DNA of 64,000 nt from Anaerolineae bacterium (GTDB lineage: Bacteria > Chloroflexota > Anaerolineae > Anaerolineales > UBA6663): contig JBBIQY010000004.1 in NCBI GenBank assembly GCA_037442085.1, forward strand, positions 1,440 to 65,439, given 5' to 3'. The position numbers were made by a program, and so were the translations under genes. The first letter of the stretch is position 1; every line of letters begins with the position of its first letter. Of the stretch, positions 47,024 through 62,359 are shown one piece after another. Under the pieces are notes generated by a model. It had not been told where the DNA came from. It searched no databases and saw only the letters and a list, made by a program, of their open reading frames with translations.

Positions 47024-47548
47024 TCAGGGCCGTGCCGGCTGGCACAGCACGAAGCTGCCGCTTTCGGTCACCCGGTAGTCATACTCAGCCTCGCCGGCCC
47101 GGATGATCACCCAGTAACCGGGCACGACGGCCTGGGTGTATTCCATACCTCGTTGCGGGCAACCAAGCGACCCATCGCTCCAGATAACGGCTTCGGCGCG
47201 AAGGTAGGTAAAGGCCGCGCGCGTAACGCCGCTGCGCTGTTCCAGATCTGCTTCGATAATTTCCTGCAAAGTTGGCGGCAATTCACCGACCACGGGCGCC
47301 GTCGTTGGCGGCACAGTGGCCAGCTCCGGCGGACGGCGCGTCACCGGCAGCGCCGGAAGAGGAAGCGTCTCCGTCGTGGGGAGCACCGTCGCAGTCGGTT
47401 GGGGTCGAGCGCCGGGAGTTGTCGTCGCAGGTGCGAGTGGATCTGTCGTAGGTTCAGGCTGAGCCGGCAGCGCGGTGGGTTCGGGGAGCGTCAGCGGTGC
47501 ACAGGCCGCCAGCAACACGGCCAGCAATAACACAACAGCAAGTTTCAT
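47024..47548 (-). CDS. Lipoprotein of unknown function
   Basis: MKLAVVLLLAVLLAAC lipobox, Pro/Thr linker, about 90-aa C-terminal domain with two Cys (..WSDGSLGCPQRG...FVLCQ). Convergent with the S8 paralog, 5 nt away. Confidence 0.6.
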   Translation of the reverse strand: MKLAVVLLLAVLLAACAPLTLPEPTALPAQPEPTTDPLAPATTTPGARPQPTATVLPTTETLPLPALPVTRRPPELATVPPTTAPVVGELPPTLQEIIEADLEQRSGVTRAAFTYLRAEAVIWSDGSLGCPQRGMEYTQAVVPGYWVIIRAGEAEYDYRVTESGSFVLCQPARP

Positions 47549-47626: not shown

Positions 47627-48451
47627 TCAGAGCTGCAGCCGATGGCGCGGATAGGAGCCAAGCACCCGCAGCATCAGCGCATACTCCGCCAGATGCTCCA
47701 ACGCACGCTTGACCGGCGCTTCCGCCACCGAGCCGACGAAATCCACGTAAAACAGGTATTCCCAGACCTTGCCTACCAACGGGCGCGATTCGATCTTGGT
47801 CAAATCCAGATCGCGTAGCGCAAACACGCTCAACGCCTTGAACAATGAGCCGGGCTCGTTCTTCAACGTAAACACGATGGAGGTCTTGGCTTCACCTTCC
47901 GGCGCCGTCGGCTGCGACGCGATGGCCAGGAAGCGCGTGTAGTTTGCCGGATCATCCTCGATGCCCTCGGCCAGGACCATCATGCCATAGACCTCGGCGG
48001 CGCGGCGCGAGGCGATGGCGGCCATTTGCCCGTCGCCGACCGCCTTCACCATCTTGACGCTCCCGGCCGTGTCATAGGCCACCTCCGTCCGGACGTTGGG
48101 TAGCGAGCGCAGGTAACGCTCGCACTGCGCCAGCGCCTGTGGATGGCTGATGACTTTGCGAACCCCGGCCAGCGTCGCGCCGGGCAGGCCGATCAGGCAG
48201 TGGCGCACCCTGAGATGATGCTCACCAACGATGTGCAGCGAGTGCTGGAGCAGCAGATCGTAGTTGCGGTGGATGCTGCCGGCGACGGAATTTTCGATTG
48301 GCGCGAGGCCGCGTTCGCACGCGCCGGACTCGACAGCGGCAAACAGGGCTTCGAAGGACTCGTGCGGCACGGTCTCGACGTTTGCGCCGAAGTGCTCCAG
48401 CGCTGCCGCTTCGGAATAGGCGCCGGGCTCTCCCTGAAACGCAACGCGCAT
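47627..48451 (-). CDS. pheA: Prephenate dehydratase
   Basis: MRVAFQGEPGAYSEAAA..., IENSVAGSI, C-terminal ACT domain (TSIVFTLKNEPGSLFKAL...ESRP). Start trimmed to the conserved N-terminus. Confidence 0.85.
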   Translation of the reverse strand: MRVAFQGEPGAYSEAAALEHFGANVETVPHESFEALFAAVESGACERGLAPIENSVAGSIHRNYDLLLQHSLHIVGEHHLRVRHCLIGLPGATLAGVRKVISHPQALAQCERYLRSLPNVRTEVAYDTAGSVKMVKAVGDGQMAAIASRRAAEVYGMMVLAEGIEDDPANYTRFLAIASQPTAPEGEAKTSIVFTLKNEPGSLFKALSVFALRDLDLTKIESRPLVGKVWEYLFYVDFVGSVAEAPVKRALEHLAEYALMLRVLGSYPRHRLQL

Positions 48452-48633
48452 CGGTTCTTTATCCTCTACTGCCCACGGTCGGGAATTGCGCTTTTCAGCC
48501 ACGAAGGGGCATGGATCATTCGTGTCCGGCGAAGGCAATGCCTTCGCCAGACCCCGGGTTTGGAGATAGCCTCTCAGAAAACCGCAGTCTGTGTCCGCGC
48601 AGCGTATCCTTCGCGCAATTCGCTGCCACTACC

Positions 48634-49692
48634 TCAGGCCAGTCGCGCGATGATTTCGTCGGTCATCTGGCGCGTGTTCAGCTTCCCGCCCAGGTCGGCG
48701 GTACGGCAGCCGTCCGTGATCGCACGCTCCACGGCCGCTTCGATGAGCGCCGCCTCCGCCTCGAGCTTGAGCGAGTAACGCAGCAATAGCGCCGCAGACA
48801 GGATCGCGCCGACCGGGTTGGCGATGCCTTTGCCGGCGATATCGGGCGCGGAGCCGTGGATCGGTTCGTACAGGCCCGGCCCGCCCTCGCCCAGCGAGGC
48901 CGAGGGCAACATGCCCATCGAGCCGGCCAGCACCGAGGCCTCGTCGGTAAGGATGTCGCCGAACATGTTCTCGGTCACCAGCACGTCGAAGCCGGCCGGG
49001 CTGGTGACCAGCCGCATCGCAGCGGTGTCCACAAGCATGTTCTCGAAAGCCACGTCCGGGTGCTCCGCCGCGACCTGTGCGGCGATCTGCCGCCACAAGC
49101 GCGAGGTCTCGAGGATGTTGGCCTTATCCACCGAGGTCACCTTCCGACGCCGGCTCTGCGCCAGCTTGAACGCCAGCCGCAGGACGCGCTCGATCTCGAA
49201 GTCATGATACTCCAGCACGTCAACGACGCGCGTATGGCCGTTCACCTGCTCGCGCCGCTTCTCGCCGAAGTACAGGCCGCCGGTGAGTTCGCGGATTACC
49301 AGCACATCCACGCCTCTCAGCCGCTCGGGCTTGAGCGGCGAGGCGTCCAGCAAAGCCGGATGCGTCTTGGCCGGGCGCAGGTTGGCAAAGACCCCGAGGC
49401 CTTTTCGCAAGCCGAGGATGCCCTGCTCGGGTCGAACGCTGGCGGCCGGGTCGTCCCACTTCGGCCCGCCCACCGCGCCCAGCAGCACGGCGTCCGCCGC
49501 CCGGCAATCGGCCAGCGTCTCGTCGGTCAGCGCCGTCCCGTAGCGGTCAATCGAGCTGCCGCCGATCGGGCGCTCGGTGAAATGGAAACTGTGTCCGCAG
49601 CGCGTGGCCACGGTTTCAAGAACGCGCACGGCTTCCGCCACCACGTCGGGGCCGATGCCGTCGCCGGGGAGAAGGATGACCTTTGCTTTCAC
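48634..49692 (-). CDS. leuB: 3-isopropylmalate dehydrogenase
   Basis: (V)KAKVILLPGDGIGPDVV..., NLRPAK, NMFGDILTDEASVLAGSMGMLPSASL. GTG start chosen by N-terminal conservation; the track ORF begins at a TTG at 49740. Confidence 0.85.
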   Translation of the reverse strand: MKAKVILLPGDGIGPDVVAEAVRVLETVATRCGHSFHFTERPIGGSSIDRYGTALTDETLADCRAADAVLLGAVGGPKWDDPAASVRPEQGILGLRKGLGVFANLRPAKTHPALLDASPLKPERLRGVDVLVIRELTGGLYFGEKRREQVNGHTRVVDVLEYHDFEIERVLRLAFKLAQSRRRKVTSVDKANILETSRLWRQIAAQVAAEHPDVAFENMLVDTAAMRLVTSPAGFDVLVTENMFGDILTDEASVLAGSMGMLPSASLGEGGPGLYEPIHGSAPDIAGKGIANPVGAILSAALLLRYSLKLEAEAALIEAAVERAITDGCRTADLGGKLNTRQMTDEIIARLA

Positions 49693-49763
49693 GGCTTTCT
49701 CAGTCTGATGCGAAGGAGGGATGAAGAGACGATCGGTCAACGAATTGTCATCCTGTCATCCTT

Positions 49764-51326
49764 TCACGGGCCGGCCATCGTCAACCCGTACTCCATCGCA
49801 TCCGCCAGCGCGCGCCAGCTGGCTTCGATGATGTTGGCGCTGGCGCCGACCGTCGTCCAGCGCTTTGTCCCGTTCTGCGTATCAATCAGCACGCGCGTGG
49901 TTGCGCCGGTGCCGTTGTTGCCGTCGAGGATGCGGACCTTGTAATCGGCCAGCTGGAATTTATCCAGCACCGGATAGTGCGGCGTCAATGCTTTGCGCAG
50001 CGCCTTGTCGAGCGCGTTGACCGGGCCGTTGCCCTCGGCGGCGGTATGCAGCACTTCCGGCGAGCCGGGCACGCGCACCTTCACCGTCGCCTCGGCAAAG
50101 ATGCCGCGCCCGCGCCGGTGCTCGACGTTCACCGAGAAGTCAATCAGCTCGAACGGGGCGGTGTACGTCGGCTCCTGCCGCTTCATCATCATCGCTACCG
50201 AGGCCTCGGCGGCCTCGAAAGCGAAGCCCTGTGCTTCGAGCTGCTTGATCTCCGTAAGCACGCCGGCCACTTCGTCGCCGTGCTCGAACTCCAGGCCATA
50301 CTCCTCGGCCTTGCTGAGCAGGTTGCCGCGCCCGGACAGCTCGCTGACGACGACGCGCATCCGATTGCCGACCTGCTCCGGATCAACATGCTGATATGAT
50401 TTTGCAGTGCGCCGCATGGCGGCCACGTGGATGCCGCCCTTGTGCGCGAAAGCGCTCTTGCCGACATAGGCCAGGTGCTCGTCGGGCGCCAGATTGGCGA
50501 CCTCGGCGACGAAGTGTGAGACCTCATATAAGCGCGCCAGGCGGCCCTCCGGCAGACAGCGCACGTCCAGTTTCAATTCCAGGTTGGCGATGATGGAGCA
50601 CAGGTTGGCGTTGCCGCACCGCTCGCCGTAGCCGTTGATGGTGCCTTGCACCTGGATCGCGCCTTCGCGCACCGCCGCCAGCGTATTCGCCACCGCGCAC
50701 TCGCTGTCGTTGTGCGTGTGAATGCCGAACGGATGCGATATTTGTTCGCGTATACGCGAACAAATATCGCCGATCTCCCACGGCATCGAGCCGCCGTTCG
50801 TATCGCACAACACCACGGTCTCTGCGCCGCCGCGCAGCGCCGCGTGCAGCGTCTCGAGGGCATACGCCGGGTCGGCCTTGTAACCGTCGAAGAAGTGTTC
50901 GGCATCGTAGATGACGCGGCGGCCGTGCGCGCGCAGATAGGCCAGGCTCTGCTCGATGATCCGCAGGTTGTCCGCCAGCGTCGTGCGCAACACCTCCGTC
51001 ACGTGCAACGTCCACGTCTTGCCGACGACGGTGCAGACCGGCGTCCGGGCGTCGAGCAGGGCTTTGAGGTTGGCGTCATCGTCCACCCCCCCGCCCACGC
51101 GACAGGTCGAGCCAAAGGCGGCGATCAGCGCGTGTTTCCAGTCGAGGTCGCGTGCCCGCTCAAAGAACTCAGCGTCTTTGGGATTGCTGCCGGGCCAGCC
51201 GCCCTCGATGAAATGCACGCCCAACTCATCCAGCTTTTGTGCAATGCGCACCTTATCCGCGCAAGAGAGCGAGAGACCTTCACGCTGAGTGCCGTCACGG
51301 AGGGTGGTGTCGTAAATTTGCATCAT
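49764..51326 (-). CDS. cimA: (R)-citramalate synthase (CimA-type LeuA-family enzyme)
   Basis: MMQIYDTTLRDGTQREGLSLSCADKVRIAQKLDELGVHFIEGGWPGSNPKDAEFF is the CimA-type N-terminus, with a C-terminal LeuA-dimer-like domain. Confidence 0.75.
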   Translation of the reverse strand: MMQIYDTTLRDGTQREGLSLSCADKVRIAQKLDELGVHFIEGGWPGSNPKDAEFFERARDLDWKHALIAAFGSTCRVGGGVDDDANLKALLDARTPVCTVVGKTWTLHVTEVLRTTLADNLRIIEQSLAYLRAHGRRVIYDAEHFFDGYKADPAYALETLHAALRGGAETVVLCDTNGGSMPWEIGDICSRIREQISHPFGIHTHNDSECAVANTLAAVREGAIQVQGTINGYGERCGNANLCSIIANLELKLDVRCLPEGRLARLYEVSHFVAEVANLAPDEHLAYVGKSAFAHKGGIHVAAMRRTAKSYQHVDPEQVGNRMRVVVSELSGRGNLLSKAEEYGLEFEHGDEVAGVLTEIKQLEAQGFAFEAAEASVAMMMKRQEPTYTAPFELIDFSVNVEHRRGRGIFAEATVKVRVPGSPEVLHTAAEGNGPVNALDKALRKALTPHYPVLDKFQLADYKVRILDGNNGTGATTRVLIDTQNGTKRWTTVGASANIIEASWRALADAMEYGLTMAGP

Positions 51327-51360
51327 TTTGGATTTCTGAGTTCGGATTGTGGAGTGCTGA
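51327..51360 (-). repeat. AATC-type leader abutting the cimA start
   Basis: Minus-strand sense tcagcactccacaatccgaactcagaaatccaaa followed by ATGATG. An inverted partial copy lies at 51385-51400. Confidence 0.7.
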
Positions 51361-51401
51361 TCTACCCTCGAACTCAATCAGCCACCAGAAATCCACAATC
51401 T

Positions 51402-51986
51402 TCAATGCGAAGCTTCATACGCGGCGATCTTGTTCTCGAAGGACAGGATGTAGCCCAGCTCGTCTATGCCCTGGAGCAGGCAGGCCTTTGAGAAGCCGTC
51501 AATCGGGAAGGGGACGGCGCGGCCGCCCGGCAGAGTCACCGTCTGCGCTGCCAGATCAATGATCAGTTCCGCTTGCGGCGTTTCCTTGGCGAGCGCGAAC
51601 AGTTCGGCGTGTGTGGCGTTATCCACCACGACGGGCAGCAGGCCGTTCTTGAGGGCATTGTTGCGGAAGATGTCGGCGAAGGAGGTGCTGATGACGGCGC
51701 GGAAGCCGTAAGCGGTGAGCGCCCACGGCGCGTGTTCGCGCGACGAGCCGCAGCCGAAGTTGTCGCCGGCCAGCAGAATCTGCGCCCCGGCGGCCCGCGG
51801 CTGGTTCAACACAAAATCCGCTTTGGGCGAGCCGTCCGCGTGACAGCGCCAGTGGTAGAAAAGCGCGTTGCCCAACCCGGCCTTGTCGGTGACTTTCAGG
51901 AATTGCGCCGGGATGATCTGGTCGGTGTCAATGTCGTTGATCGGCAGCGCGACCAGGCGGGAGGTGAGAGTAGTAAATTGAGCCAT
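51402..51986 (-). CDS. leuD: 3-isopropylmalate dehydratase small subunit
   Basis: 194 aa. ..[14 protein letters not shown]..., [17 protein letters not shown]. Confidence 0.85.
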
Positions 51987-52058
51987 TGCAGATTTGTGAT
52001 TCGTGGTTTTGGATTGCGAATTGTGTTCAATCCAAAATCAGAAATCCACAATCTAAAA
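51987..52058 (-). repeat. Inverted pair of AATC-type repeats forming an imperfect hairpin between leuC and leuD
   Basis: TTTTGGATTG (52007-52016) and CAATCCAAAA (52028-52037) are perfect complements. Flanks (gatttgtgattcgtgg / tcagaaatccacaatc) are partly complementary. Confidence 0.7.
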
Positions 52059-53459
52059 TCAAAGCAGCGTCCTCACGTCCGTGATCCGGCCTGTAAGCGC
52101 CGCGGCGGCGGCGGTGAGCGGCGAGGCGAGAAAGGTACGCCCTCCCTGGCCCTGCCGGCCTTCGAAGTTGCGGTTGCTGGTGCTCACCGCGTACTCGCCC
52201 GGCGCCAGCTGGTCGCCGTTCATGGCGATGCACATCGAGCAGCCGGCATAGCGCCAGTCCGCTCCGGCCTCGATGAAGATTCGGTCCAGGCCCTCGGCTT
52301 CGGCCTGCTTCTTCACCTCTTGCGAGCCGGGCACGACCAGCATCCGCACGCCCGGCGCGATTTTACGCCCCCGCAACAAGCCGGCGGCCAGCCTCAAATC
52401 GGAAATCCGCGAGTTCGTGCAACTGCCGAGGAAGACGACATTGACCGGATGGCCGAGCAGCGACTGGCCGGGGCGCAACGCCATGTACTTGAGGGCCTTC
52501 TCCAACGCCAGCTTTTGATTGGCGTCGGTCAACGTGTCCGGATCAGGCACGCAGCCTGTGATGGGCATGCCCATGCCGGGGTTCGTGCCGTAGGTGATCA
52601 TCGGCTCCAGGCTGGAAGCGTCGAGGGTAATGGACTTGTCGTAGGTGGCGCCCTCGTCCGTGGGCAACCGCCGCCAGCGGGCCACGGCCTCGTCCCAGGC
52701 CGCACCCCGCGGCGCGAACTCGCGCCCGGCCAGATACTCGAAGGTCGTCTCATCCGGCGCCACCATGCCGGCGCGCGCACCGCCCTCGATGCTCATGTTA
52801 CAGATGGTCATGCGCTGCTCCATCGTCAGCGCGCGGATGGCCGGGCCGGTGTACTCGAAGACATGGCCGGTGCCGCCGCCCACGCCAATGCGGGCAATGA
52901 GAGCGAGGATGATGTCCTTGGAGGAGACGCCCGGGTTCAGCCGGCCCTCGACCTGCACCTGGTAGGTCTGCGGCTTACGTTGCAGCAGGCACTGGCTCGC
53001 CAGCACCATCTCCACTTCGCTGGTGCCGATGCCGAAAGCCAGCGCGCCGAACGCGCCGTGCGTGGAAGTGTGACTGTCGCCGCACACGATCGTCATGCCC
53101 GGCTGAGTCAGGCCCAGCTCTGGCCCGATGACGTGGACGATGCCGCGCCGGGGCGAGTGCAGGCCATACAGCTGGATCCCAAATTCGGCGCAGTTGGCCT
53201 CCAACATCTTGATCTGCTTCGCGGCCAGCTCGTCAAGGATCGGCAGGTCGGGGCTGAAGGTGGGAATACTGTGATCCATCGTCGCCACGGTCTTGTCCGG
53301 ACGACGCACCCGCAGGCCCCGCGCACGTAGACCGGTGAAGGCCTGCGGCGAGGTCACTTCATGAATAAGATGCAGGTCAATGTACAGCACCGCCGGCGAG
53401 CCCGGTTCCTGGGTGACAACGTGCTGATCCCAGATTTTTTCGAACAGTGTCTGTGGCAT
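52059..53459 (-). CDS. leuC: 3-isopropylmalate dehydratase large subunit
   Basis: [15 protein letters not shown]..., [45 protein letters not shown]. Confidence 0.9.
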
Positions 53460-53484
53460 TGTGCTCTGACCAGGCGAGAACGAC

Positions 53485-53685
53485 TCAGTTGAGCGTCACA
53501 CCGAGCCGGGGCAACTGCGCCGGCTGCGGCGTGGGCGGGTTGGGCGTGGTCTCCGAACGCGGCGCTCGAGCGGCAGGCCCCGTCAGACCAGACAAATCCC
53601 AAGCAGCAGGGATCTGGCGCAACTCAGCAAAGGGATCATACCAATCCGGCATCCGGTCGTTGGGCGAAGAGATCGGGGCGTTCAT
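53485..53685 (-). CDS. Small hypothetical ORF (66 aa) between leuA and leuC
   Basis: Its ATG overlaps the leuA stop as ATGA (53682-53685). By eye, GC3 is moderately high but lower than in neighbouring genes. No family recognised. Confidence 0.35.
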
Positions 53686-55349
53686 TTCGACTCCTGGCCG
53701 TTGGCGCTGTGCGCCGGGGCGGCGACCTCGGCGGGGGACTCTGGCGAGCCGTACTGGCCGGTGGTCACGAGCAGTTTGTTGAGCGCTGCCAGATAAGCTT
53801 TGGCGCTGGCGACGATGATGTCGGTATCCGCGCCATACCCGCCAAACGAGCGGGCGCGCGCTGTATCGTCCTGCGCCGTCAGCGTCGGCGAACCAGCATG
53901 ACTCTGGATGCGGACCGTCACTTCACCCTGCGCGTCAATGCCTTCGGTGATGGCGTGGATGGAAAACTCCAGCAGCGTATTCGGCGCCTGGACGATAGCG
54001 TCAATCGCCTTGTACGTGGCGTCCACCGGGCCGGTGCCGATGGCGGCGTAGACGTGGCGGCGCCCGCCCGGGCCAATCAGGCGCACCGTGGCCGTCGGCA
54101 GGCCCATCGTGCCGCAGGCCACCTGCAAACCGTCCAGCGTAAAGAACTCACGCGGTTGAAGGATTTCATCGGAGACCAGCGCCTCCAGGTCGGCGTCGGT
54201 GATCACCTTCTTCTTGTCCGCCAACGCCTTGAAACGCTCGAAGGCCTTGTCGAGATCGCTCTCGTTGAGCAGATAACCCAACTCCTGCAGGCGGGCCTTG
54301 AGCGCATGCCGGCCCGAGTGTTTGCCCAACACCAGCCGCGTGTGCTGTGCACCGACCGTCTCCGGGCGCATGATTTCATAGGTCTGGTGATGCTTGAGCA
54401 TCCCATCCTGATGGATACCGGCCTCGTGCGCAAAAGCGTTGCTGCCGACGACGGCCTTGTTCGGCGGGACGAGGAAGCCGGTATAGTTGCTGACCAGCTT
54501 GCTGACGCGCATGATCTGTGTCGTGTCTATGCCGGTTTGCAAGCCGAAGACCGGCCGGCGCGTATGCAGCGCCATCACCACTTCTTCCAGCGAAGTGTTG
54601 CCTGCCCGCTCGCCGATGCCGTTGATCGTCACCTCCACCTGTCGCGCGCCGTTACGGATCCCGGCCAGCGTGTTCGCCGTCGCCAGGCCCAGGTCATCGT
54701 GGCAGTGGGTGGAGAGGATGACGTTTTCGATGCCGGGCACGTGTTTCACGATCCCGGCGATCAGTTTGCCATATTCGTCCGGCGTGGTGTAGCCGACGGT
54801 GTCGGGGATGTTAAGCGTCGTCGCGCCGGCTTTGATGGCCTCGGCCAGCACGACGTACAGAAATTCCGGGTCGCTGCGCCCAGCATCTTCCGGGCTGAAC
54901 TCCACGTCCTCGCACAGGCTGCGCGCATAGGCCACCATTTCTGCTACCCGCTCGATCACTGCCTCCGGATCCATCTTGAGCTTGTATTTCATGTGGATCG
55001 GAGAGGTGGCGAGGAAGGTGTGGATGCGCGGACGGGCCGCCGGGCTAACGGCCTGCCAGGCTTTATCAATATCGTTCTTGTTGGCGCGCGCCAGCGCACA
55101 GATGATGGGCCGCCGCACCTGTCCGGGCGAAAACTCGATCCCCACCGGGTCGCCGACCTCCAGCGCGATGCGGCGCACCGCCTCCAGGTCATCGGGCGAA
55201 GCAGCGGGGAAGCCGGCCTCGATCACGTCCACGCCGAGACGGGCCAGCGCGCGCGCCACCTCCAGCTTCTCCGTCGAAGTCATCGAAGCGCCGGGAGATT
55301 GCTCGCCATCACGCAGGGTGGTGTCGAAGATGCGTACGTAGTTGTTCAT
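53682..55349 (-). CDS. leuA: 2-isopropylmalate synthase
   Basis: [24 protein letters not shown]..., [17 protein letters not shown]-terminal LeuA allosteric domain. Start trimmed from the track ORF. Confidence 0.9.
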
Positions 55350-55365
55350 AGCAGAATGCTCACTG

Positions 55366-55409
55366 CCCAATTCGCAATGCGCATGGCGCATTGCGAATTT
55401 CGAATTGGG
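55366..55409 (-). other. Nested palindrome between ilvC and leuA
   Basis: TTCGCAATGCGC-atg-GCGCATTGCGAA (55371-55397, 12-bp arms). Outer CCCAATTCG / CGAATTGGG (55366-55374 / 55401-55409). No U-tract. Confidence 0.6.
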
Positions 55410-55416
55410 CCTTCGG

Positions 55417-56469
<1,053 letters not shown>

Positions 56470-56886
56470 TCAGAGCGAGGGATAGAGCGCCTCGTCGGTG
56501 TGGAAGTTCAGCAGGGCATCGAACACATCCGAGTCACTGACGATGCCGACCGGGCGCCCCTCGACGGCGACGGGCAGGCGCCGGATACGGTGCCGCATCA
56601 TCAACGCCGCGCAGCGCCGCGCCGGGCAGTCGGGGGTAACGGTGATGAGCGGGCTGGTCATGGCTTCGGCCACGCGCACGCGGCCCGGCTCGCGCCCGGC
56701 AGCGACAACCTTGCTCAAAATATCGTGTTTGGTGATGATGCCGTACGCCCCGCCCTCGTAACGCGGCGGCACGATCAGGCTAGAAATTTTCTTGGCCTGC
56801 ATCTTGCGAATAGCGTACGCCACCGACTCGCCGGCGTCCACCGTTTGCAGCGGCTGACGCATCAGGTGTTGGGCCGTTAACATCAT
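56470..56886 (-). CDS. CBS-domain pair protein
   Basis: About 138 aa with two CBS-like repeats (..VDAGESVAYAIRKMQAKKISSLIV.. and ..ITVTPDCPARRCAALMMRHRIRRLPV..). Its ATG overlaps the ilvN stop (TGATG). Confidence 0.7.
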   Translation of the reverse strand: MMLTAQHLMRQPLQTVDAGESVAYAIRKMQAKKISSLIVPPRYEGGAYGIITKHDILSKVVAAGREPGRVRVAEAMTSPLITVTPDCPARRCAALMMRHRIRRLPVAVEGRPVGIVSDSDVFDALLNFHTDEALYPSL

Positions 56887-57458
56887 CACACGGACATAGC
56901 CAGCCCGGCGAGCGCGACCTCGCCGTTGCTGTGTTCAGCGACCTGGGCAGCCACGGTCGGCGGGTTCGGGCTGACGGTCTCGGCCCCGCGCGCCATCGCC
57001 ACGATGCCGGTACGCACCATCTCGATGATACCGAACGGCTGCAAGACTTTGATCAACCCCTCGATCTTGTCCTCGGAGCCGGTGACCTCCAACATCAGCG
57101 ATTTTTCTTCGATGTCCACCACGCGCGCGCGGAACACGTCCGCCAGTTGCAGAATCTCGGCGCGCTTGCCGTTGGCAGCAGAGACTTTAACCAGCGCCAG
57201 GTCGCGCACGACGGCGGCCTTGTCGGTCACGTCATCCACCCGCAGCACGTTGACCAATTTGTACAAGTTGGCCTCGATGCGGCGGGCCGTCACGTCATCG
57301 GTATCTACCACGATCGTCATGCGGCTCACGCCGTCCTGCTCGGTGCGGCCCACCGTCAGCGACTCGATGTTGAAGGCGCGCCGACGAAACAGCGAAGCAA
57401 CGCGGTTCAGCACGCCGGGTTTGTCTTCCACGTAAGCGACCAGAATGTGTTTAGGCAT
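56886..57458 (-). CDS. ilvN: Acetolactate synthase small (regulatory) subunit
   Basis: MPKHILVAYVEDKPGVLNRVASLFRRRAFNIESLTVGRTE (ACT domain typical of IlvH/IlvN). Confidence 0.9.
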   Translation of the reverse strand: MPKHILVAYVEDKPGVLNRVASLFRRRAFNIESLTVGRTEQDGVSRMTIVVDTDDVTARRIEANLYKLVNVLRVDDVTDKAAVVRDLALVKVSAANGKRAEILQLADVFRARVVDIEEKSLMLEVTGSEDKIEGLIKVLQPFGIIEMVRTGIVAMARGAETVSPNPPTVAAQVAEHSNGEVALAGLAMSV

Positions 57459-57520
57459 AAGGTCTCCGATCAGAAAGTGGAAAGTGGAAAGCGAAGCCTT
57501 ACCTGCTACTTTCTATTTCG

Positions 57521-59278
57521 CTACTTCGGCATTTCCCATTCCGTATCGGCGCCGGTCTCGGCCATCACGTTGACGGCGGGCTTCGGGCGGCGGATCATGT
57601 TGTGCAGGTCGGCGCCGGCTGGAACCATCGGGAAGACGGTATCCTCCTGTTCCACCTGGAAGTCCATCACCACCGTGCCCGGATGCGCGCGCGCGGCTTC
57701 GACGGCGGCCTGTACCTCCGCGCGGCGGGTGATGCGTAGGCCTTTCAGTCCGAAGGCCTCGGCGAGCTTGACGAAGTCGGGGCCGAGCAGCGGGGTAGCG
57801 GCGTAACGCTTCTCGTAGAAGAACTCTTGCCACTGGCGCACCATGCCCAAGTAGGCGTTGTTGATAATGGCAATGTTGAGCTTGAGATTCTCCTGCGCGA
57901 CGGTGGCCAGCTCCGCCATCGTCATCTGAAAGCCGCCATCGCCGGCGATGACCCACACTTCCTTGTCCGGGCGGGCGAACTTGGCGCCGATCGCCGCCGG
58001 AAGGGCGAAGCCCATGGTGCCCAGGCCGCCCGAAGTGATCAGCGAACGCGGCTGCTCATGGCGGAAATACTGCGCCTCCCACATCTGGTGCTGGCCAACG
58101 TCGGTGACGACGATCGGATCCACCTCGCGGGTCAGCCGCCAGATGTCGTGGATGGCGTGCGCGGCATACAGGTGGCCGAAGTCCGGAAGGCTCTGGATGT
58201 CGCGCACGGCCGAGTCACCCTTCATCTCGTGGATATGCTCCAGCCAGGCCTCGCGGTCCAGCGGCTGGACCTGCGGCGCCAACTCCTCTAGCACGCTGCG
58301 CAGGTCGCCTAGCAAGGCCGCGTCCACGCGGACGTTCTTATTGACTTCGGAAGGATCAATTTCGATATGAATCTTGCGCGCATTTGGCGCATAAGTCTTG
58401 AGGTTGCCGGTCACCCGGTCGTCGAAGCGCATGCCGCAGGCGATGAGCAGGTCGGCCTGCTGAATGGCCATATTCACCCAGGCTTCGCCGTGCATGCCCA
58501 TCATGCCCAGGTTGAGCGGATGCGAAGCCGGGATGCCGCCCAGGCCGAGTAACGTGACGGCGATGGGGATCTGCGCCTTCTCGGCCAGGTCGAGCACGAG
58601 GCGCGTCGCGCCGGACTTGATGACGCCCTGGCCGGCCAGGATGAGGGGGCGCTTGGCCGAGTTGATCAGGTCAATCGCGTGCTGATACTCGGAGGGCAGC
58701 GCGCGCAGGTTGGGCCGGTAGCCGGGCAGGCGCGGCGCGGCGGCCGCCCAGTCGAAGTCGGCGGTGAGCTGCTGCGCGTCTTTGGTAATGTCCACCAGCA
58801 CCGGGCCGGGCCGGCCGCTGCTGGCGATGTAGTAGGCCTCGCGCAGCGTGCGGGCGATATCTTCCGGGCGGGTGACCAGGTAATTGTGCTTGGTGATCGG
58901 CAGCGTCACGCCGGTCACATCGGTTTCCTGAAAGGCATCCGAGCCGATGGCCTTCGACCCGACCTGGCCGGTGATACAGACGATGGGCGATGAGTCCATC
59001 ATGGCGGTGGCGATGCCGGTGACCATGTTGGTGGCGCCGGGGCCGGAGGTGGCGATGGCCGTGCCCACCCGTCCGCTGGCGCGGGCGTAACCGTCGGCCA
59101 TATGGGTCGCGCCCTGCTCATGCCGGACGAGCACGTGATGGATTTGCGGATATTTCGTCATCGCATCATAGGTCGGCAGGATCGCGCCGCCGGGATAACC
59201 AAAGATGACGTCCACCCCCTCGCGCACCAGACATTCCCAAACGATTTCGGCTCCGGTCAGTTTCATAGTCTTCTCCAT
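57521..59278 (-). CDS. ilvB: Acetolactate synthase large (catalytic) subunit
   Basis: MKLTGAEIVWECLVREGVDVIFGYPGGAILP..., ThDP motif GLGTMGFALPAAIGA...GDGGFQM...NN. Confidence 0.9.
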   Translation of the reverse strand: MEKTMKLTGAEIVWECLVREGVDVIFGYPGGAILPTYDAMTKYPQIHHVLVRHEQGATHMADGYARASGRVGTAIATSGPGATNMVTGIATAMMDSSPIVCITGQVGSKAIGSDAFQETDVTGVTLPITKHNYLVTRPEDIARTLREAYYIASSGRPGPVLVDITKDAQQLTADFDWAAAAPRLPGYRPNLRALPSEYQHAIDLINSAKRPLILAGQGVIKSGATRLVLDLAEKAQIPIAVTLLGLGGIPASHPLNLGMMGMHGEAWVNMAIQQADLLIACGMRFDDRVTGNLKTYAPNARKIHIEIDPSEVNKNVRVDAALLGDLRSVLEELAPQVQPLDREAWLEHIHEMKGDSAVRDIQSLPDFGHLYAAHAIHDIWRLTREVDPIVVTDVGQHQMWEAQYFRHEQPRSLITSGGLGTMGFALPAAIGAKFARPDKEVWVIAGDGGFQMTMAELATVAQENLKLNIAIINNAYLGMVRQWQEFFYEKRYAATPLLGPDFVKLAEAFGLKGLRITRRAEVQAAVEAARAHPGTVVMDFQVEQEDTVFPMVPAGADLHNMIRRPKPAVNVMAETGADTEWEMPK

Positions 59279-59325
59279 CCTTCCGCTGTCTGCTCACTAC
59301 TGGCTACTTTCTGGAAAGTAGTTGT

Positions 59326-59841
59326 CTACTCGATGAGCGGTGCGAGCGACTTCCACCCGTACGCCACTTCGATCAACGTCTTGCCGCCGATCTCGATCTC
59401 TTTCTCGCGCACGTACTGACCGCCGAGCGCCTCGTAAAACTTGCGCGCCGGGTTCTCGGCCAGCACCCAGACCAGCATGGAACTCAGGCCGCGCCGCTGC
59501 AACTCCCGTGCGATTTCCTTAACCAGCGCGCGCCCGACGCCTCGGCCCTTTTGCTCGGCCAGCAGGTAAATGGCATACAGCTCACCGGTGTAGGTCGCAT
59601 CGCCCTCACGCTCCGGCCCGCCGACGGCAAAACCGATCACCGCGCCCTCGTCCTCAGCGACGACCAGATACGATTGCCGCTCAGGGGCGACGGCCTGGCG
59701 CCACCGCGCCGCGCGCTGCTCGACCGACAAGGCCGCCAGAAACTCGTCGGGCACGAGGCCGGCGTACGTCGCGCGCCAGCTCGCCACGGGCACCCACGCA
59801 ATCGCCTCCGCATCGTCCGCCGTCGCCCGCCGAATGAACAT
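59326..59841 (-). CDS. GNAT-family N-acetyltransferase
   Basis: 171 aa. ..LYAIYLLAEQKGRGVGRALV.. (Q/RxxGxG/A acetyl-CoA motif). Confidence 0.75.
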   Translation of the reverse strand: MFIRRATADDAEAIAWVPVASWRATYAGLVPDEFLAALSVEQRAARWRQAVAPERQSYLVVAEDEGAVIGFAVGGPEREGDATYTGELYAIYLLAEQKGRGVGRALVKEIARELQRRGLSSMLVWVLAENPARKFYEALGGQYVREKEIEIGGKTLIEVAYGWKSLAPLIE

Positions 59842-59881
59842 TCAACCTTCCACAACGACGCAGCCGTGGTGCGTAGTCCGT

Positions 59882-61552
59882 TCAAATCGTCACCGCGCCA
59901 ACGGACGCGGATGAGACGCTGTTGGCATATTTCGCCATGACGCCGGTCTTGTAGCGCGGGGCAGGCGGCTGCCAGGCCGCTTTGCGGCGGGCCAGCTCGT
60001 CCGGCGCGATCGCGACGTTGATCGCGCGCGCCTTCACATCAATCTCAATCAGGTCGCCCTCGTGGACGAAGGCGATCATCCCGCCGCGGGCGGCCTCCGG
60101 CGCCACATGCCCGGCAGAGATGCCGCGCGTCGCGCCGGAGAAACGGCCATCGGTGAGCAGGGCCACGCTCTCGCTCAAGCCCGCGCCGGCAATCGCGGCC
60201 GTCACGCCGAGCATCTCGCGCATCCCCGGTCCGCCCTTCGGGCCTTCATAGCGGATCACTACCACATCGCCGGCGCGGATGCGGCCCTCGGTCACCGCCT
60301 GCATCGCGTCCTCCTCCCGATCAAAGACACGGGCCGGGCCCTTGAAGTACTGCACGTCGTTGGCGGCGGTCTTGTGGACGCAGCCCTCTTCGGCCAGGTT
60401 GCCGTGCAGGATGACCAGGCCGCCGGTAGGCTTGAGCGGTTGATCCAGCGAGTAGACGATTTGCTGGCCGGGGGTCTCCTGCGCGTTGGCACACGCTTCG
60501 GCAATCGTCTGGCCGGTGACCGTGAGACAGTCGCCGTGGAGATGGCCGCCGTCGAGCAGACGCTTCATCACCAGTGGGATGCCGCCGGCGGCATGCAGGT
60601 CAGCGGCGGTGAACCGGCCGCCCGGCTTCAGGTCGCAGATGAGGGGTGTGCGCGCGCTGAGGGCATCGAAGTCGTCAATATGCAGGTCAACGCCTGCTTC
60701 CTGGGCCAGCGCCAACAGGTGCAGCACAGCGTTCGTCGAGCCGCCGGTGGCGGCGACGGAGATGATGGCGTTTTCGAAAGCGCGACGGGAGAGGATACGG
60801 GAGGGGCGGAGGTCGTTCTTGAGGAGGTCCATGACCAGGCGTCCACACTCATAGGCGACGCGATCCTTGTCGGCGGCCATGGCAGGCACGGAGTTGAAGC
60901 CGACGGGCGATAGGCCGATGAACTCCATGAGGGTGGACATGGTGTTGGCCGTGAATTGCCCACCGCATGCGCCCGCGCCTGGACAGGCCTGGTTCTCGAT
61001 GGCCTCGAACTGCGCCTGGGTGAGGCGGCCGGCCGCGTACGCGCCCACCGCCTCGAACACATCCTGGATGGTCAGGTCGCGGCCCTCGACGTGGCCGGGC
61101 GCGATGGAGCCGCCGTACAGCGCCAGGCTGGGAAGGTCGAGGCGCGCCATGGCCATCAGCACGCCGGGGTTGGTCTTGTCGCAACCGCTCAAGCACACCA
61201 GCGCATCGAAGTGGTTGCCGCGCGCCACCAGCTCGACCGAGTCCGCGATCACCTCCCGGCTGATGAGCGAGGCTTTCATGCCTTCTGCGCCCATGCTGAT
61301 GCCGTCCGAGATCGAGACCGTGTTGAACTCCAGCGGCGTGCCGCCCGCGGCGCGAATCCCCTCCTTCACCTTCGCCGCCAGCCGGCGCAGATGAAAATTG
61401 CACGGCCCGATTTCGATCCAGGTGTTGGCCACGCCGACCAGGGGCCGGCGCAGGTCGTCGTCGGTGAAGCCGACGGCCTTGAACATGGCCCGCGCAGGCG
61501 CGCGGTTGGGACCGTCGGTGATGGCGCGGCTGTTGCGCTTCAGATCGGTCAA
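59882..61552 (-). CDS. ilvD: Dihydroxy-acid dehydratase
   Basis: ..[26 protein letters not shown]..., CDKTNPG, ..[11 protein letters not shown].. Start placed at TTG 61552 (GGAGG-N5-TTG); the track start, TTG 61570, lies inside the upstream terminator U-tract. Confidence 0.9.
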
Positions 61553-61563
61553 AGAGTCCTCCG

Positions 61564-61601
61564 AAAACAAAAGGAGCCGCCCGGTTGGTTTGAGCGGCTC
61601 C
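61564..61601 (-). terminator. Intrinsic terminator GGAGCCGC-N13-GCGGCTCC followed by TTTTGTTTT, directly upstream of ilvD (attenuator candidate)
   Basis: Arms at 61594-61601 and 61573-61580 (plus-strand coordinates). U-tract comp. 61564-61572. It ends 11 nt before the ilvD start. Confidence 0.7.
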
Positions 61602-61633
61602 TGAGTGAGCGTGTGCTGTGCGGTGTGTGTGAC

Positions 61634-61735
61634 TTATCTGCGCCCGACCGTCACCGTCGCCAGCCCAAACCGTGAGGGGCCCTCGACGAGGGCCACAATA
61701 AGGAAGAGGCTAATCAGGACGACAACAAACAGCAT
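61634..61735 (-). CDS. Candidate ilv/leu leader peptide (33 aa, Leu/Val/Ile-rich)
   Basis: MLFVVVLISLFLIVALVEGPSRFGLATVTVGRR. 12 of the first 17 residues are L/V/I. The stop lies 32 nt before the terminator stem. No clear SD; the ATG is about 15 nt downstream of the -10 box. Confidence 0.45.
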   Translation of the reverse strand: MLFVVVLISLFLIVALVEGPSRFGLATVTVGRR

Positions 61736-61750
61736 GGCAGAGTTGGGGTA

Positions 61751-61779
61751 AATATAGACACTCGAAGCGGGGCTGTCAT
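61751..61779 (-). promoter_or_regulatory. Sigma-70-like promoter ATGACA-N17-TATATT for the ilv leader
   Basis: Comp. 61774-61779 (ATGACA) and comp. 61751-61756 (TATATT). Confidence 0.45.
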
Positions 61780-61916
61780 TGGGCCGATTGCCCAAAACCT
61801 GCAGGCAGAATGTGCTTCATTTGCACGAAGGCACGTCCAGAGCGCTTAAGCAGAGAGAAACTCCGGCTTAAGTTTTCCTGAACAAGGATTGAAAGCCGGC
61901 TGACCGTCTCAACAAA

Positions 61917-61942
61917 AGAGCTACCCGTGGCCGGGTAGCTCT
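61917..61942 (-). terminator. Intrinsic terminator: 11-bp perfect stem AGAGCTACCCG/CGGGTAGCTCT, then TTTTGTTG on the minus strand
   Basis: Arms at 61917-61927 and 61932-61942, 4-nt loop. U-tract comp. 61909-61916. Confidence 0.6.
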
Positions 61943-62046
61943 CCCGAGCTGTGTGGTGAAGGATGGCCGTGCCCAAGCGAAGGCGTTGCTGATTTCGGCC
62001 CGCAAGGGCCGTGCCTCAGCCCCAGATTGAAACGGAAATGATGTGG

Positions 62047-62205
62047 CTAGTTCCAGTTTACGGCTTGGGTGCTGGGATTGTTCCAGTTGACGGCCGCCAA
62101 CACTCTCGGCCCACCTGCCAGGCCACTTGCCAGAGCGGACAAGAAGAGAGTGACAACGACAACTGCAATCGCCAGTCGCTGCCGGAAAGTGATATGGTGT
62201 GTCAC
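62047..62205 (-). CDS. Candidate small secreted or membrane peptide (52 aa)
   Basis: GTG start. VTHHITFRQRLAIAVVVVTLFLSALASGLAGGPRVLAAVNWNNPSTQAVNWN: basic N-terminus plus hydrophobic helix, duplicated AVNWN tail. Bracketed by a strong promoter (62332-62359) and a terminator (61917-61942). Below the ORF-track cutoff. Confidence 0.3.
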   Translation of the reverse strand: MTHHITFRQRLAIAVVVVTLFLSALASGLAGGPRVLAAVNWNNPSTQAVNWN

Positions 62206-62331
62206 AGTGAAATCTCTTTGAACCGGGGGATTGTCCTGAACCTGAATGACCAGCCATCGGTCACGTTACACAGCACGTGAGTCTCCGGGTCGCCCTCGCT
62301 TTGTTTTTATTCAGGTTTTCAGGATGGAGCA

Positions 62332-62359
62332 ATTTTAGGGATTTACCGCTTGATGTCAA
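62332..62359 (-). promoter_or_regulatory. Sigma-70-like promoter TTGACA-N16-TAAAAT (minus strand)
   Basis: Comp. 62354-62359 TTGACA, comp. 62332-62337 TAAAAT, in a low-GC intergenic region. Confidence 0.55.

Follow-up and report, generated by a model that had tools for sequence, protein, structure and literature searches.

A predicted Leu/Val/Ile leader-peptide attenuator directly upstream of ilvD in an Anaerolineae bacterium and its relatives

The classical multivalent attenuators of branched-chain amino acid (BCAA) biosynthesis are those of Escherichia coli and Salmonella, where leaders precede the ilvGMEDA (ilvL, 32 aa), ilvBN (ivbL) and leu (leuL) operons. The promoter-proximal ilvL reading frame has about 32 codons, about half of which specify Leu, Val or Ile, and is followed by a terminator just 5' of the first structural gene. 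Its transcript can adopt the mutually exclusive pairings 1:2, 2:3 and 3:4, with the regulatory codons situated on segment 1. Leader attenuation of BCAA operons in these two genera is cited as a general statement in PMC5794164. The same paper describes an attenuator peptide 5' of ilvD in Staphylococcus aureus, for which the model was tested via suppressor mutations (Kaiser et al. 2018, PMC5794164), and Rli60 of Listeria monocytogenes was probed for attenuation by mutating its start codon, RBS and terminator (Brenner et al. 2018, PMC5864092). The ilvBNC leader of Corynebacterium glutamicum, also known as the ilvB-II motif, is described as forming its leader peptide in the absence of a ribosome-binding site (PMC10272879, PMC11857589; Morbach et al. 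2000, cited therein). Mycobacteria are reported to use leaderless polycysteine short ORFs as Cys-responsive attenuators (bioRxiv 10.1101/834739). Finally, the ilvB-OMG and ilvB (Leptospira) motifs from the Breaker laboratory have been reassessed as BCAA/Thr-rich uORFs (PMC10272879), which illustrates that the cataloguing of such attenuators is still under way, family by family.

Our analysis concerns a 64-kb stretch of Anaerolineae DNA (the window), in which a classical ilv/leu leader-peptide attenuator layout had been proposed from the letters alone. That layout was borne out in the form of a conserved ORF, terminator, antiterminator and anti-antiterminator, and it is highly probable that the element is a ribosome-mediated attenuator, responding to the supply of charged Leu, Val and Ile tRNA and thereby controlling read-through into ilvD...pheA. 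The element resembles ilvL in ORF length, ILV density, the place of its terminator, its three exclusive pairings and the location of the regulatory codons on segment 1. In contrast to the E. coli leaders, with which it shares no similarity by sequence or model (Rfam, NCBIfam), it belongs to another phylum, has no Shine-Dalgarno sequence and a very short 5' UTR, conserves a hairpin inside the ORF and places its stop codon well past segment 2; the first gene here is ilvD, and the operon also contains leu genes, cimA and pheA. Like the S. aureus and Listeria systems, it combines a leader peptide and a terminator directly 5' of ilvD, at the head of an ilv-leu operon, whereas the leaders of those species, of 26 and 13 aa, come with an RBS, contain far fewer regulatory codons, act jointly with CodY and are unrelated in sequence. 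The C. glutamicum leader shares the BCAA-rich uORF, the three alternative hairpins and the missing ribosome-binding site, but it precedes ilvB in an actinobacterium, is unrelated in sequence and structure and falls into another covariance family. The mycobacterial ORFs, as that preprint describes them, also sit at the very start of a polycistronic mRNA, lack a Shine-Dalgarno sequence and carry codon runs for the amino acid of the downstream pathway; they differ in amino acid and phylum, and in the element reported here an intrinsic terminator and a covarying antiterminator are evident. The ilvB-OMG and ilvB (Leptospira) motifs are likewise conserved RNA motifs 5' of ilv genes that hold a BCAA-rich uORF, yet they accompany ilvB rather than ilvD.

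The coding part of the leader is situated as follows.
61634..61735, minus strand: leader ORF of 33 codons plus UAA, ATG start, product MLFVVVLISLFLIVALVEGPSRFGLATVTVGRR
61685..61732, minus strand: regulatory codon run, codons 2-17, 12 of 16 being Leu/Val/Ile

The 33-codon ORF (complement of 61735-61634) of the original prediction was recovered intact, with I/L/V at 12 of residues 2-17 and at 15 of all 33 residues (2 Ile, 6 Leu and 7 Val). A shortage of charged Leu, Val or Ile tRNA would stall the ribosome at codons 2-17. Considering every ATG ORF 14-60 codons long, on either strand of the window, only the leader ORF contains at least 8 I/L/V in 12 codons, and none of 34,354 16-residue segments drawn from the window's ORFs of at least 150 aa, membrane proteins included, reaches 12/16. 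The ATG, reading frame and stop are kept in 24 genome relatives. Across the family the I/L/V share amounts to 37-59% in the leader frame versus 12-35% and 0-15% in the two remaining ones, and the peptide cores consist of I/L/V at 316 of 400 residues (79%) with few A/F/G/M/W. The enrichment is thus frame-specific and distinct from general hydrophobicity. Leaders from 17 metagenome contigs encode similar ILV-rich peptides; outside this I/L/V content, the peptide sequence differs from clade to clade. When the 25 leaders are pooled, CTT is the most frequent Leu codon and ATT the most frequent Ile codon, both of them rare in the operon genes of the window (5% and 17%, respectively, of the codons for these residues); in the leader of the window itself, both Ile codons are ATT but just one of six Leu codons is CTT.

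Transcription of the leader would depend on the following element.
61751..61779, minus strand: predicted sigma-70-type promoter, -35 ATGACA at 61779..61774, 17-nt spacer, -10 TATATT at 61756..61751

These hexamers, already singled out as promoter-like (ATGACA-N17-TATATT), match the consensus at 10 of 12 positions and form one of 2 promoter-like sites in 2.5 kb, where shuffles lead one to expect 0.3. Most relatives possess a -35/-10 pair at the same place, its -10 ending 9-23 nt 5' of the ATG, and the spacer sequence varies. Transcription usually starts about 7 nt past the -10, which in the window ends 15 nt before the leader ATG; a start at the usual distance would therefore leave a 5' UTR of about 8 nt. 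Palindromes also occur near the promoter and hint that protein factors act at the locus as well. A 53-codon version of the ORF, starting from TTG 61795, was rejected because an ORF of that length would run across the promoter-like hexamers. No Shine-Dalgarno sequence was seen ahead of the first leader ORF across the family. This absence had been raised as a caveat and, like the merely predicted transcription start, belongs among the points against the attenuator; it is not taken as a weakness, being the rule across the family and having a precedent in C. glutamicum ilvBNC. Conservation of the ATG, frame and stop is indirect evidence that the leader ORF is translated, and its translation would probably be leaderless or nearly so.

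Between the leader ORF and ilvD lie a terminator and the signals for ilvD translation.
61564..61602, minus strand: intrinsic terminator (3:4), 11-bp stem AGGAGCCGCUC / GGGCGGCUCCU, 9-nt loop, run UUUUGUUUU
61550..61562, minus strand: ilvD Shine-Dalgarno GGAGG at 61562..61558 and TTG start at 61552..61550

Folding verified the expected terminator 32 nt past the ORF stop and just ahead of the GGAGG/TTG start of ilvD. Its core, GGAGCCGC...GCGGCTCC, extends to an 11-bp stem in which 61602..61592 pairs with 61582..61572, followed by TTTTGTTTT at 61572..61564. The structure has an energy of -21.2 kcal/mol (z = -4.7), and 0 of 200 shuffles were as stable. Across 25 sequences 96% of cells are paired, and compensatory changes occur in 10 of the 11 pairs. 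A generic terminator scan with a loop limit of 8 nt missed both strong terminators, at 61602..61564 and 61945..61915, in the former case probably because its 9-nt loop exceeds the limit; direct folding was used instead. Between the T-run and the ilvD Shine-Dalgarno lies just one base (C, 61563), a spacing that is equally tight in two relatives (L001 and L002). There is consequently no room for a separate ilvD promoter, and none intervenes between terminator and gene.

The leader transcript contains further strands and a hairpin that compete with, or accompany, this terminator.
61701..61734, minus strand: segment 1, 5' strand of 1:2 (anti-antiterminator), GCUGUU..UUGUCGUC..AGCCU pairing with segment 2
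61678..61694, minus strand: inner hairpin GGCCCUC-GUC-GAGGGCC, codons 14-20, top of the 1:2 domain
61646..61672, minus strand: segment 2, CGGUUUGGGCUGGCGACGGUGACGGUC, the entire stretch being the 3' strand of 1:2
61587..61598, minus strand: segment 3, GCC-GCUCAAACC, 3' strand of the antiterminator

Segment 1 corresponds to nucleotides 2-35 of the ORF, inside the ILV run. For the 1:2 domain a folding energy of -36.0 kcal/mol was obtained, and when cognate and non-cognate clade partners were permuted, 7 of 20,000 permutations were as good. The palindrome that had been noticed within the ORF (GGCCCTC/GAGGGCC) forms a real hairpin of -13.2 kcal/mol (z = -3.1), with 89% of cells paired across the family and compensatory changes in 3 of 4 core pairs, as in GGUCCUC/GAGGACC and GGUUCUC/GAGAACC. 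This inner hairpin may serve as an RNA polymerase pause hairpin. The core of segment 2 (61671..61659, GGUUUGGGC-U-GGC) provides the antiterminator's 5' strand, and segment 3 spans 7 of the 11 nt of the terminator left arm plus 5 loop nt. Because of this overlap, antiterminator and terminator are mutually exclusive. A pairing of codons 22-25 with the left arm and loop had been suggested as a weak 9-bp antiterminator; the pairing is retained and the weakness is not, since GGTTTGGGC pairs with GCTCAAACC and is continued by GGC:GCC to give 12 bp at -22.2 kcal/mol. As a hairpin, 2:3 folds at -30.6 kcal/mol. The proposed antiterminator of S. aureus, by comparison, pairs with the poly-U tail rather than with the terminator left arm.

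Covariation was then scored on an alignment that had not been fitted to 2:3. The antiterminator is paired in 81% of cells versus 32-56% with a slid partner, and its covariation score was reached by 0 of 500 shuffles. Column-wise pair counts over all clades are blurred by compensating one-base indels, as seen in an Anaerolineales clade with peptides like ...VLIIKDQFSVRMAAVRAK, where the antiterminator register is off by one; for this reason a duplex-energy permutation test and a clade-specific count were added. Cognate duplexes of segments 2 and 3 have a summed energy of -170, compared with -145 +/- 6 for cross-clade duplexes (0 of 20,000 permutations). By eye, GGUUUGGGC:GCCCAAACC becomes GGUUAGG:CCUAACC, GGUUGGGU:ACCCAAC or GGGCAGC:GCUGUCC in other clades. 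The clade-specific count, made on a closely related metagenome set, showed good pairing with slight covariation, the latter counting against the attenuator. Taken one by one, 1:2, 2:3 and 3:4 each show covariation or a preference for the cognate partner, and in the window 1:2 (-36.0) is more stable than 2:3 (-30.6), which is more stable than 3:4 (-20.6 kcal/mol in this comparison). This order is the one that an attenuator requires.

The genes that would be controlled were identified by NCBIfam and Pfam.
47627..61552, minus strand: co-directional gene string ilvD, GNAT, ilvB, ilvN, CBS-pair protein, ilvC, leuA, 66-codon ORF, leuC, leuD, cimA, leuB, pheA

The order ilvD-GNAT-ilvBN-CBS-ilvC-leuA-leuCD-cimA-leuB-pheA given earlier was upheld on one strand, with ilvD scoring 833 bits against NF002068. 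Intergenic gaps are at most 95 nt, save for the 222 nt between leuA and leuC, which are occupied by the 66-codon ORF. On the operon strand, the consensus scan that missed the two strong terminators found only weak internal sites (5 pairs). The gene layout suggests that ilvD...pheA forms a single transcript, so the whole operon would be under one attenuator site.

A homologous ILV-rich ORF and terminator lie directly 5' of ilvD at 24 of 80 ilvD loci from other genomes, mostly labelled Anaerolineae or Chloroflexota. A covariance model added a 25th genome locus, bringing to 25 the related loci at which the mini-ORF and terminator 5' of ilvD are kept, and 17 more units were found in metagenome contigs. 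A lack of such conservation had been named beforehand as a refuting outcome, and the opposite was clearly seen. Mini-ORFs also lie 5' of ilvD in Acidobacteriota, where they might represent a second family. The family totals 43 members and three tandem second copies; the window scores 102.9 bits against the model and the other members score 54-123 bits. Among metagenome contigs with enough downstream DNA, ilvD is the next gene in 15 of 15, and ilvB follows ilvD wherever the contig reaches that far. The unit also precedes a divergent ilvD type that is 41% identical to that of the window. Upstream neighbours differ (hisE and a small ORF in the window; another ORF, with a KMSKS motif, in L001). 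Since the upstream neighbour varies and ilvD is constant, the element travels with ilvD. At 17 orthologous loci without the leader, an Rfam scan found no T-box or other substitute element.

From these features the following mode of action can be proposed. Transcription would begin a few nucleotides 5' of the leader ATG, and the ORF would be translated without a Shine-Dalgarno sequence. When Leu, Val and Ile are plentiful, the ribosome would pass the ILV run and segment 1 would re-pair with segment 2 behind it; segment 3 would then be free to join the 3:4 terminator, and transcription would stop at 61572..61564, just 5' of the ilvD ribosome-binding site. When any one of the charged tRNAs is scarce, the ribosome would stall in codons 2-17 and occupy segment 1, so that segment 2 would pair with the emerging segment 3, the terminator left arm would be sequestered and RNA polymerase would enter ilvD. 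With zero translation both 1:2 and 3:4 would form, resulting in super-attenuation. The original prediction had a ribosome that finishes the ORF masking the antiterminator. In the window's clade, however, the stop codon lies about 25 nt downstream of the segment 2 strand, which would stay uncovered by a ribosome at the stop, unlike the antiterminator strand of the trp paradigm; this counts against the attenuator. More probably, the terminating state results from 1:2 re-forming behind the ribosome.

Two other explanations deserve to be weighed against an attenuator. The first, which we consider very unlikely, regards the ORF as a true gene for a small hydrophobic membrane peptide, followed by a terminator of its own; its ILV run would be a transmembrane helix, and ilvD would be expressed through incidental read-through. 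The peptide does look like one transmembrane helix with a basic tail (RRR, RRK, KRK or RAK) in several clades, and two relatives exist in protein collections, one called 'hypothetical protein' and the other without a name. The conservation, however, is at the RNA level: GGUU.GGG.UGGCG is kept at all three codon positions and covaries with the terminator left arm. The ILV density of the core exceeds that of every protein segment in the window, and A/F/G/M/W are largely missing from it. Moreover, the peptide sequence drifts between clades apart from its I/L/V content, and the element always stands directly 5' of ilvD regardless of the upstream genes. Searches of seven leader peptides against NCBIfam and two against Pfam gave no family match beyond chance-level transmembrane-like ones (E > 0.03), and exact-sequence look-up of the leader peptides returned no informative names. 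A dual role, as both attenuator and membrane peptide, is compatible with these results.

The second explanation, likewise highly improbable, is that something other than the ribosome, be it a ligand, an RNA-binding protein or, as in a T-box, a tRNA, operates the switch, the ORF being incidental. Alternative pairings alone do not specify the sensor, the palindromes near the promoter could be read as a sign of protein factors, and modelled ribosome masking does not flip the equilibrium fold: with a ribosome footprint on the ILV codons, the terminator state is still favoured by about 6-12 kcal/mol, a result that counts against the attenuator. Minimum-energy results were noisy when the footprint was stepped along the ORF in 25 species. 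Given that equilibrium preference, the switch would have to be kinetic, and our argument for an attenuator rests on covariation and the energy hierarchy of the isolated helices rather than on footprint folding. Against a non-ribosomal factor, Rfam 15 returned nothing in 61550..61800 at E <= 10, T-box and Rfam riboswitch classes included, and no gathering-level match across the window. Counted from the ATG through the T-run, the leader spans a mere 175 nt or so, with no conserved structured domain besides the three helices. An incidental ORF would also leave unexplained why the ATG, frame, stop and frame-specific I/L/V are retained in the 24 genome relatives and the 17 metagenome contigs, and the ILV codons constitute segment 1, the very strand whose masking would release the antiterminator. 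The weakest explanation, that an ordinary terminator of the upstream gene lies by chance next to a fortuitous ORF, agrees with the ordinary minimum free energy of the whole leader (z = -1.0; 34 of 200 shuffles equal), which also counts against the attenuator, but it is in effect refuted by the conservation data, as the strong terminator at 61945..61915 already closes the upstream unit, the ORF is unique in 64 kb, the covariance model gives the window 102.9 bits and the other members 54-123 bits, and upstream genes vary.

A classical Leu/Val/Ile leader-peptide attenuator thus accounts best for the element, its regulation being deduced from the nucleotide sequence. A further reading, which we hold tentatively and lean slightly against, is that the first leader ORFs use leaderless or Shine-Dalgarno-independent initiation, with sensing from the first codons, and that the unit is modular, with two in series in some lineages. 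Three contigs contain two leader-plus-terminator units in tandem. In these, the internal second ORF is preceded by a Shine-Dalgarno-like purine run, AAAGGAAG or GAAAGGAAA, and no such run was seen before the first ORF, a pattern expected if both tandem ORFs are translated.

The Anaerolineae are largely uncultured and, to our knowledge, their gene regulation has been little studied; we also know of no report of tight transcription-translation coupling or leaderless initiation in the Chloroflexota. A literature search for attenuation or leader peptides in Chloroflexi/Anaerolinea found none (the survey of Lopatovskaya et al. 2010 was outside its scope). The mechanism itself is textbook, and a specialist would be pleased rather than surprised by it. 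The present results would extend classical leader-peptide attenuation to the Anaerolineae (Chloroflexota), for which neither Rfam, Pfam and NCBIfam nor the searchable literature yielded an earlier description, and they imply a coupling of transcription to translation that is tight enough to let the ribosome steer RNA folding. The covariance model, with its 43 members and three tandem second copies, could seed a new RNA family that could keep such mini-ORFs from going unannotated or being labelled 'hypothetical protein'. Should the leaderless and modular reading prove true, it would be direct evidence that the Chloroflexota couple transcription tightly to translation and use leaderless initiation, and the databases would gain a newly defined RNA family. 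For the organism, the attenuator offers a regulatory model for a 13-gene operon that covers Leu, Val and Ile, via the citramalate route, together with pheA.

The minus-strand leader preceding ilvD is, in all high probability, a ribosome-mediated attenuator responding to isoleucine, leucine and valine (ILV). Analysis of the window confirmed that the leader features listed in the original prediction (a promoter-like element, an ILV-rich 33-codon ORF, a terminator and a palindrome within the ORF) are present and beyond chance expectation.

Features of the ilvD leader and of the unit upstream of it (window positions)
62359..61915, minus: unit between hisE and the ilv promoter
62359..62332, minus: the unit's near-consensus promoter, TTGACA-16-TAAAAT
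62205..62047, minus: the unit's 52-codon GTG ORF, MTHHITFRQRLAIAVVVVTLFLSALASGLAGGPRVLAAVNWNNPSTQAVNWN, with a signal-peptide-like N-terminus and two VNWN repeats
61945..61915, minus: the unit's strong terminator (-26.8 kcal/mol, z -4.95)
61779..61751, minus: promoter-like ATGACA-N17-TATATT
61735..61634, minus: leader ATG ORF, peptide MLFVVVLISLFLIVALVEGPSRFGLATVTVGRR
61602..61564, minus: terminator, 11-bp stem AGGAGCCGCUC / GGGCGGCUCCU with a 9-nt loop, then UUUUGUUUU
61562..61558, minus: GGAGG of ilvD, with the TTG start at 61552

The leader ORF was the sole match on either strand of the window when ATG ORFs 14-60 codons long were screened for any 12-codon stretch containing 8 or more I/L/V. 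Its 12 I/L/V residues in 16 were equalled by none of the 34,354 16-residue windows taken from all window ORFs of at least 150 aa. The terminator hairpin lies 32 nt past the ORF stop. In isolation it folds at -21.2 kcal/mol (z = -4.7), a stability that none of 200 shuffles matched. The palindrome forms the hairpin GGCCCUC-GUC-GAGGGCC, which gave -13.2 kcal/mol (z = -3.1) when folded alone.

Searches with NCBIfam and Pfam bore out the gene identities proposed behind the leader: ilvD, a GNAT acetyltransferase, ilvB, ilvN, a CBS-pair protein, ilvC, leuA, leuC, leuD, citramalate synthase, leuB and prephenate dehydratase (pheA), all on the minus strand. Intergenic gaps are short except between leuA and leuC, where 222 nt are occupied by a 66-codon ORF (53685..53485, minus) that encodes a Pro-rich peptide without a Pfam match and whose ATG overlaps the leuA stop (ATGA). 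Inside the gene string a consensus scan returned only weak minus-strand terminator-like sites (5 pairs), a scan that also overlooked both strong terminators (61602..61564 and 61945..61915). Non-pathway genes occupy 59841..59326, 56889..56470 and 47548..47024 (minus); the GNAT gene sits between ilvD and ilvB, the CBS-pair gene overlaps the end of ilvN and abuts ilvC, and pheA is followed by a 174-aa ORF without a Pfam match. Ligand-sensing regulation is a possible role for the CBS protein. Upstream of the ilv promoter lie hisE (PRA-PH) and the independent promoter/small ORF/terminator unit, whose terminator would shield the ilv promoter from upstream transcription. This unit has no Pfam or Rfam match and is missing from the equivalent position in L001, a relative's ilvD locus.

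The nearest ilvD relatives are MAGs labelled Anaerolineales (91%, 85% and 84% identity). A BCAA-rich mini-ORF with a terminator recurs at orthologous loci, as the original prediction required: of 80 ilvD loci from other species, 24 (mostly labelled Anaerolineae, Anaerolineales or Chloroflexota) have such a pair directly upstream of ilvD, the homologous ORF being ILV-rich, ATG-initiated and 29-43 codons long. R1, a covariance model of 142 positions built on these loci and the window, found every training sequence again and matched the window once (61564..61713, 102.9 bits). It added locus L034 (72.5 bits), overlooked by the ORF scan, in which the ORF is frameshifted. There, at 3463-3580, the ATG is not in phase with the ILV-rich frame, and the ilvD start region is apparently frameshifted too; an assembly indel error is more likely than loss of the ORF. 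Following a metagenome pattern scan, R1 retrieved 17 more contigs (67-112 bits). The next gene was ilvD in all 15 with sufficient downstream sequence, and ilvB followed in every such contig extending beyond ilvD. The leader-linked ilvDs include a subtype with just 41% identity to that of the window. Since the downstream ilvD is constant while the upstream neighbour in L001 is a different ORF, with a KMSKS motif, the leader travels with ilvD. Among the ilvD loci compared, the leader is absent from those labelled Binatia or delta-proteobacterial and from some Chloroflexota loci, and an Rfam scan of 17 leader-less loci found no replacement RNA element. In about ten relatives (L003, about 3751-3903; L012, L013, L014, L017, L028, L034, L052, L057 and L060) the attenuator terminator and ilvD are separated by a small acidic ORF (~50-100 codons). 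A Shine-Dalgarno-like AGGAG/GGAGA run precedes this ORF, and its product has the conserved C-terminus W-x3-(L/M)-(F/M)-(E/D)-x-(Y/F)-N-(G). Pfam gave no match for the L003 copy, and the window has no such ORF.

We divided the leader RNA into segments 1 (ILV-codon strand), 2 (antiterminator 5' strand), 3 (part of the terminator left arm and loop) and 4 (right arm). Across 25 sequences the terminator (3:4) is 96% paired with compensatory changes in 10 of 11 pairs, and the inner hairpin 89% paired with such changes in 3 of 4 core pairs. The antiterminator (2:3) pairs GGUUUGGGC-U-GGC (61671..61659) with GCC-GCUCAAACC (61598..61587) and takes up 7 of the 11 left-arm bases. The original prediction was thus right about the pairing and wrong in calling it weak and 9 bp long, as the duplex has 12 bp and an energy of -22.2 kcal/mol. 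In a MAFFT alignment that had not been adjusted to the antiterminator, pairs form in 81% of cells versus 32-56% with the partner slid 1-3 columns, and the covariation score was reached by 0 of 500 shuffles. In one clade compensating one-base indels displace the register, so cognate and cross-clade duplex energies were also compared. The clade-level cognate sum for segments 2 and 3 was -170.3 against -144.8 +/- 6.0 when permuted (0 of 20,000 as low), and for segments 1 and 2 it was -205.2 against -179.1 +/- 7.3 (7 of 20,000). Isolated window domains gave -36.0 (1:2, the anti-antiterminator, with the inner hairpin), -30.6 (2:3) and -20.6 kcal/mol (3:4), and the order 1:2 > 2:3 > 3:4 is the hierarchy needed by an attenuator.

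In the proposed mechanism, a ribosome stalled in codons 2-17 would occupy segment 1, so that 2:3 would form and pre-empt 3:4; with unhindered translation, 1:2 would re-form and 3:4 would terminate transcription. The suggestion that a ribosome finishing the ORF masks the antiterminator does not suit the window clade: there the stop codon lies ~25 nt past segment 2, so a terminating ribosome would leave that segment uncovered, unlike in the trp paradigm. In two other clades the stop is 0-10 nt from segment 2. The whole-leader fold energy is ordinary and a modelled ribosome footprint leaves the equilibrium fold unflipped, from which we infer that the decision of the switch must be kinetic. Speculatively, RNA polymerase may pause at the inner hairpin.

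Directly upstream of the ORF most relatives have a -35/-10 pair whose -10 ends 9-23 nt ahead of the ATG; in a few the best promoter match is farther upstream. No Shine-Dalgarno was seen before the first leader ORF in the window or relatives, and the 5' UTR would measure ~2-16 nt, from leaderless to very short. There is a precedent in the leader peptide of C. glutamicum ilvBNC, which is made without a ribosome-binding site (Morbach et al. 2000, as cited in PMC10272879). Three metagenome contigs carry two full leader and terminator units in tandem before ilvD:

L135, 217-348 and 391-529: tandem units
L106, 1511-1642 and 1702-1843: tandem units
L104, 2223-2092 and 2052-1906, minus: tandem units

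The second, internal ORF is preceded by a Shine-Dalgarno-like purine run, AAAGGAAG or GAAAGGAAA, and no such run lies ahead of the first ORF in these three contigs. This arrangement fits translation of both ORFs by an initiation mode matching their position, and looks like a duplicated attenuator working in series. A perfect palindrome, TTGGGC-AATCG-GCCCAA (61795..61779, minus), abuts the -35 hexamer and is present, bar one mismatch, in L001 and L003 as well; these share with the window a block TTCGTGCAAA (61829..61820, minus) ~35 nt upstream of it. Other clades have different promoter-region palindromes, such as GCCCAAA-N7-TTTGGGC in L014. A transcription factor that acts besides attenuation could use the palindrome as its operator. 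The palindrome's half-site is similar to the leader's GGUUUGGGC/GCCCAAACC pair, possibly by coincidence.

The leaders ilvL, ivbL and leuL of E. coli have the same architecture as the window leader. It is shared by the experimentally studied ilvD leaders of S. aureus (PMC5794164) and Listeria (Rli60; PMC5864092) and by the Corynebacterium ilvB-II uORF (PMC10272879). Rfam 15, Pfam and NCBIfam hold no curated-family match to the leader; in exact-sequence look-ups its peptides were absent from the collection, unnamed or "hypothetical protein"; and searches of the accessible literature returned no description for Chloroflexi. The mechanism itself is already known. Separate mini-ORFs lie 12-135 nt upstream of ilvD in loci labelled Acidobacteriota/Terriglobales (L064, L065, L071, L076, L078) and Vicinamibacterales/Vicinamibacteria (L053, L059, L069). 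They finish with ...VLILLVLFILTGVAVTPGASG or ...IATVIVIVAGVLAPAANG, have GGCCATCATCC...GATGATGGCC terminators behind them, and look like an independent BCAA-rich attenuator family; R1 gave no match to them at E <= 1, nor did Rfam at gathering thresholds in L059 and L065. For the window leader, classical attenuation is the best explanation.

I/L/V make up 37-59% of the leader peptides in frame versus 12-35% and 0-15% in the other frames. I/L/V account for 79% of the 16-residue cores, with Ser second and A/F/G/M/W very scarce, a composition pointing to ILV codons, not hydrophobicity, as the target of selection. In the 25 pooled leaders Leu is most often encoded by CTT and Ile by ATT, whereas in the window's own operon genes CTT makes up just 5% of Leu codons and ATT 17% of Ile codons; the window leader uses ATT for 2 of 2 Ile codons and CTT for 1 of 6 Leu codons. 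Such usage recalls the rare codons of enterobacterial leaders, but could also come from RNA-structure constraints. As all three amino acids occur in the window leader (2 Ile, 6 Leu and 7 Val), control is probably multivalent, by isoleucine, leucine and valine together.
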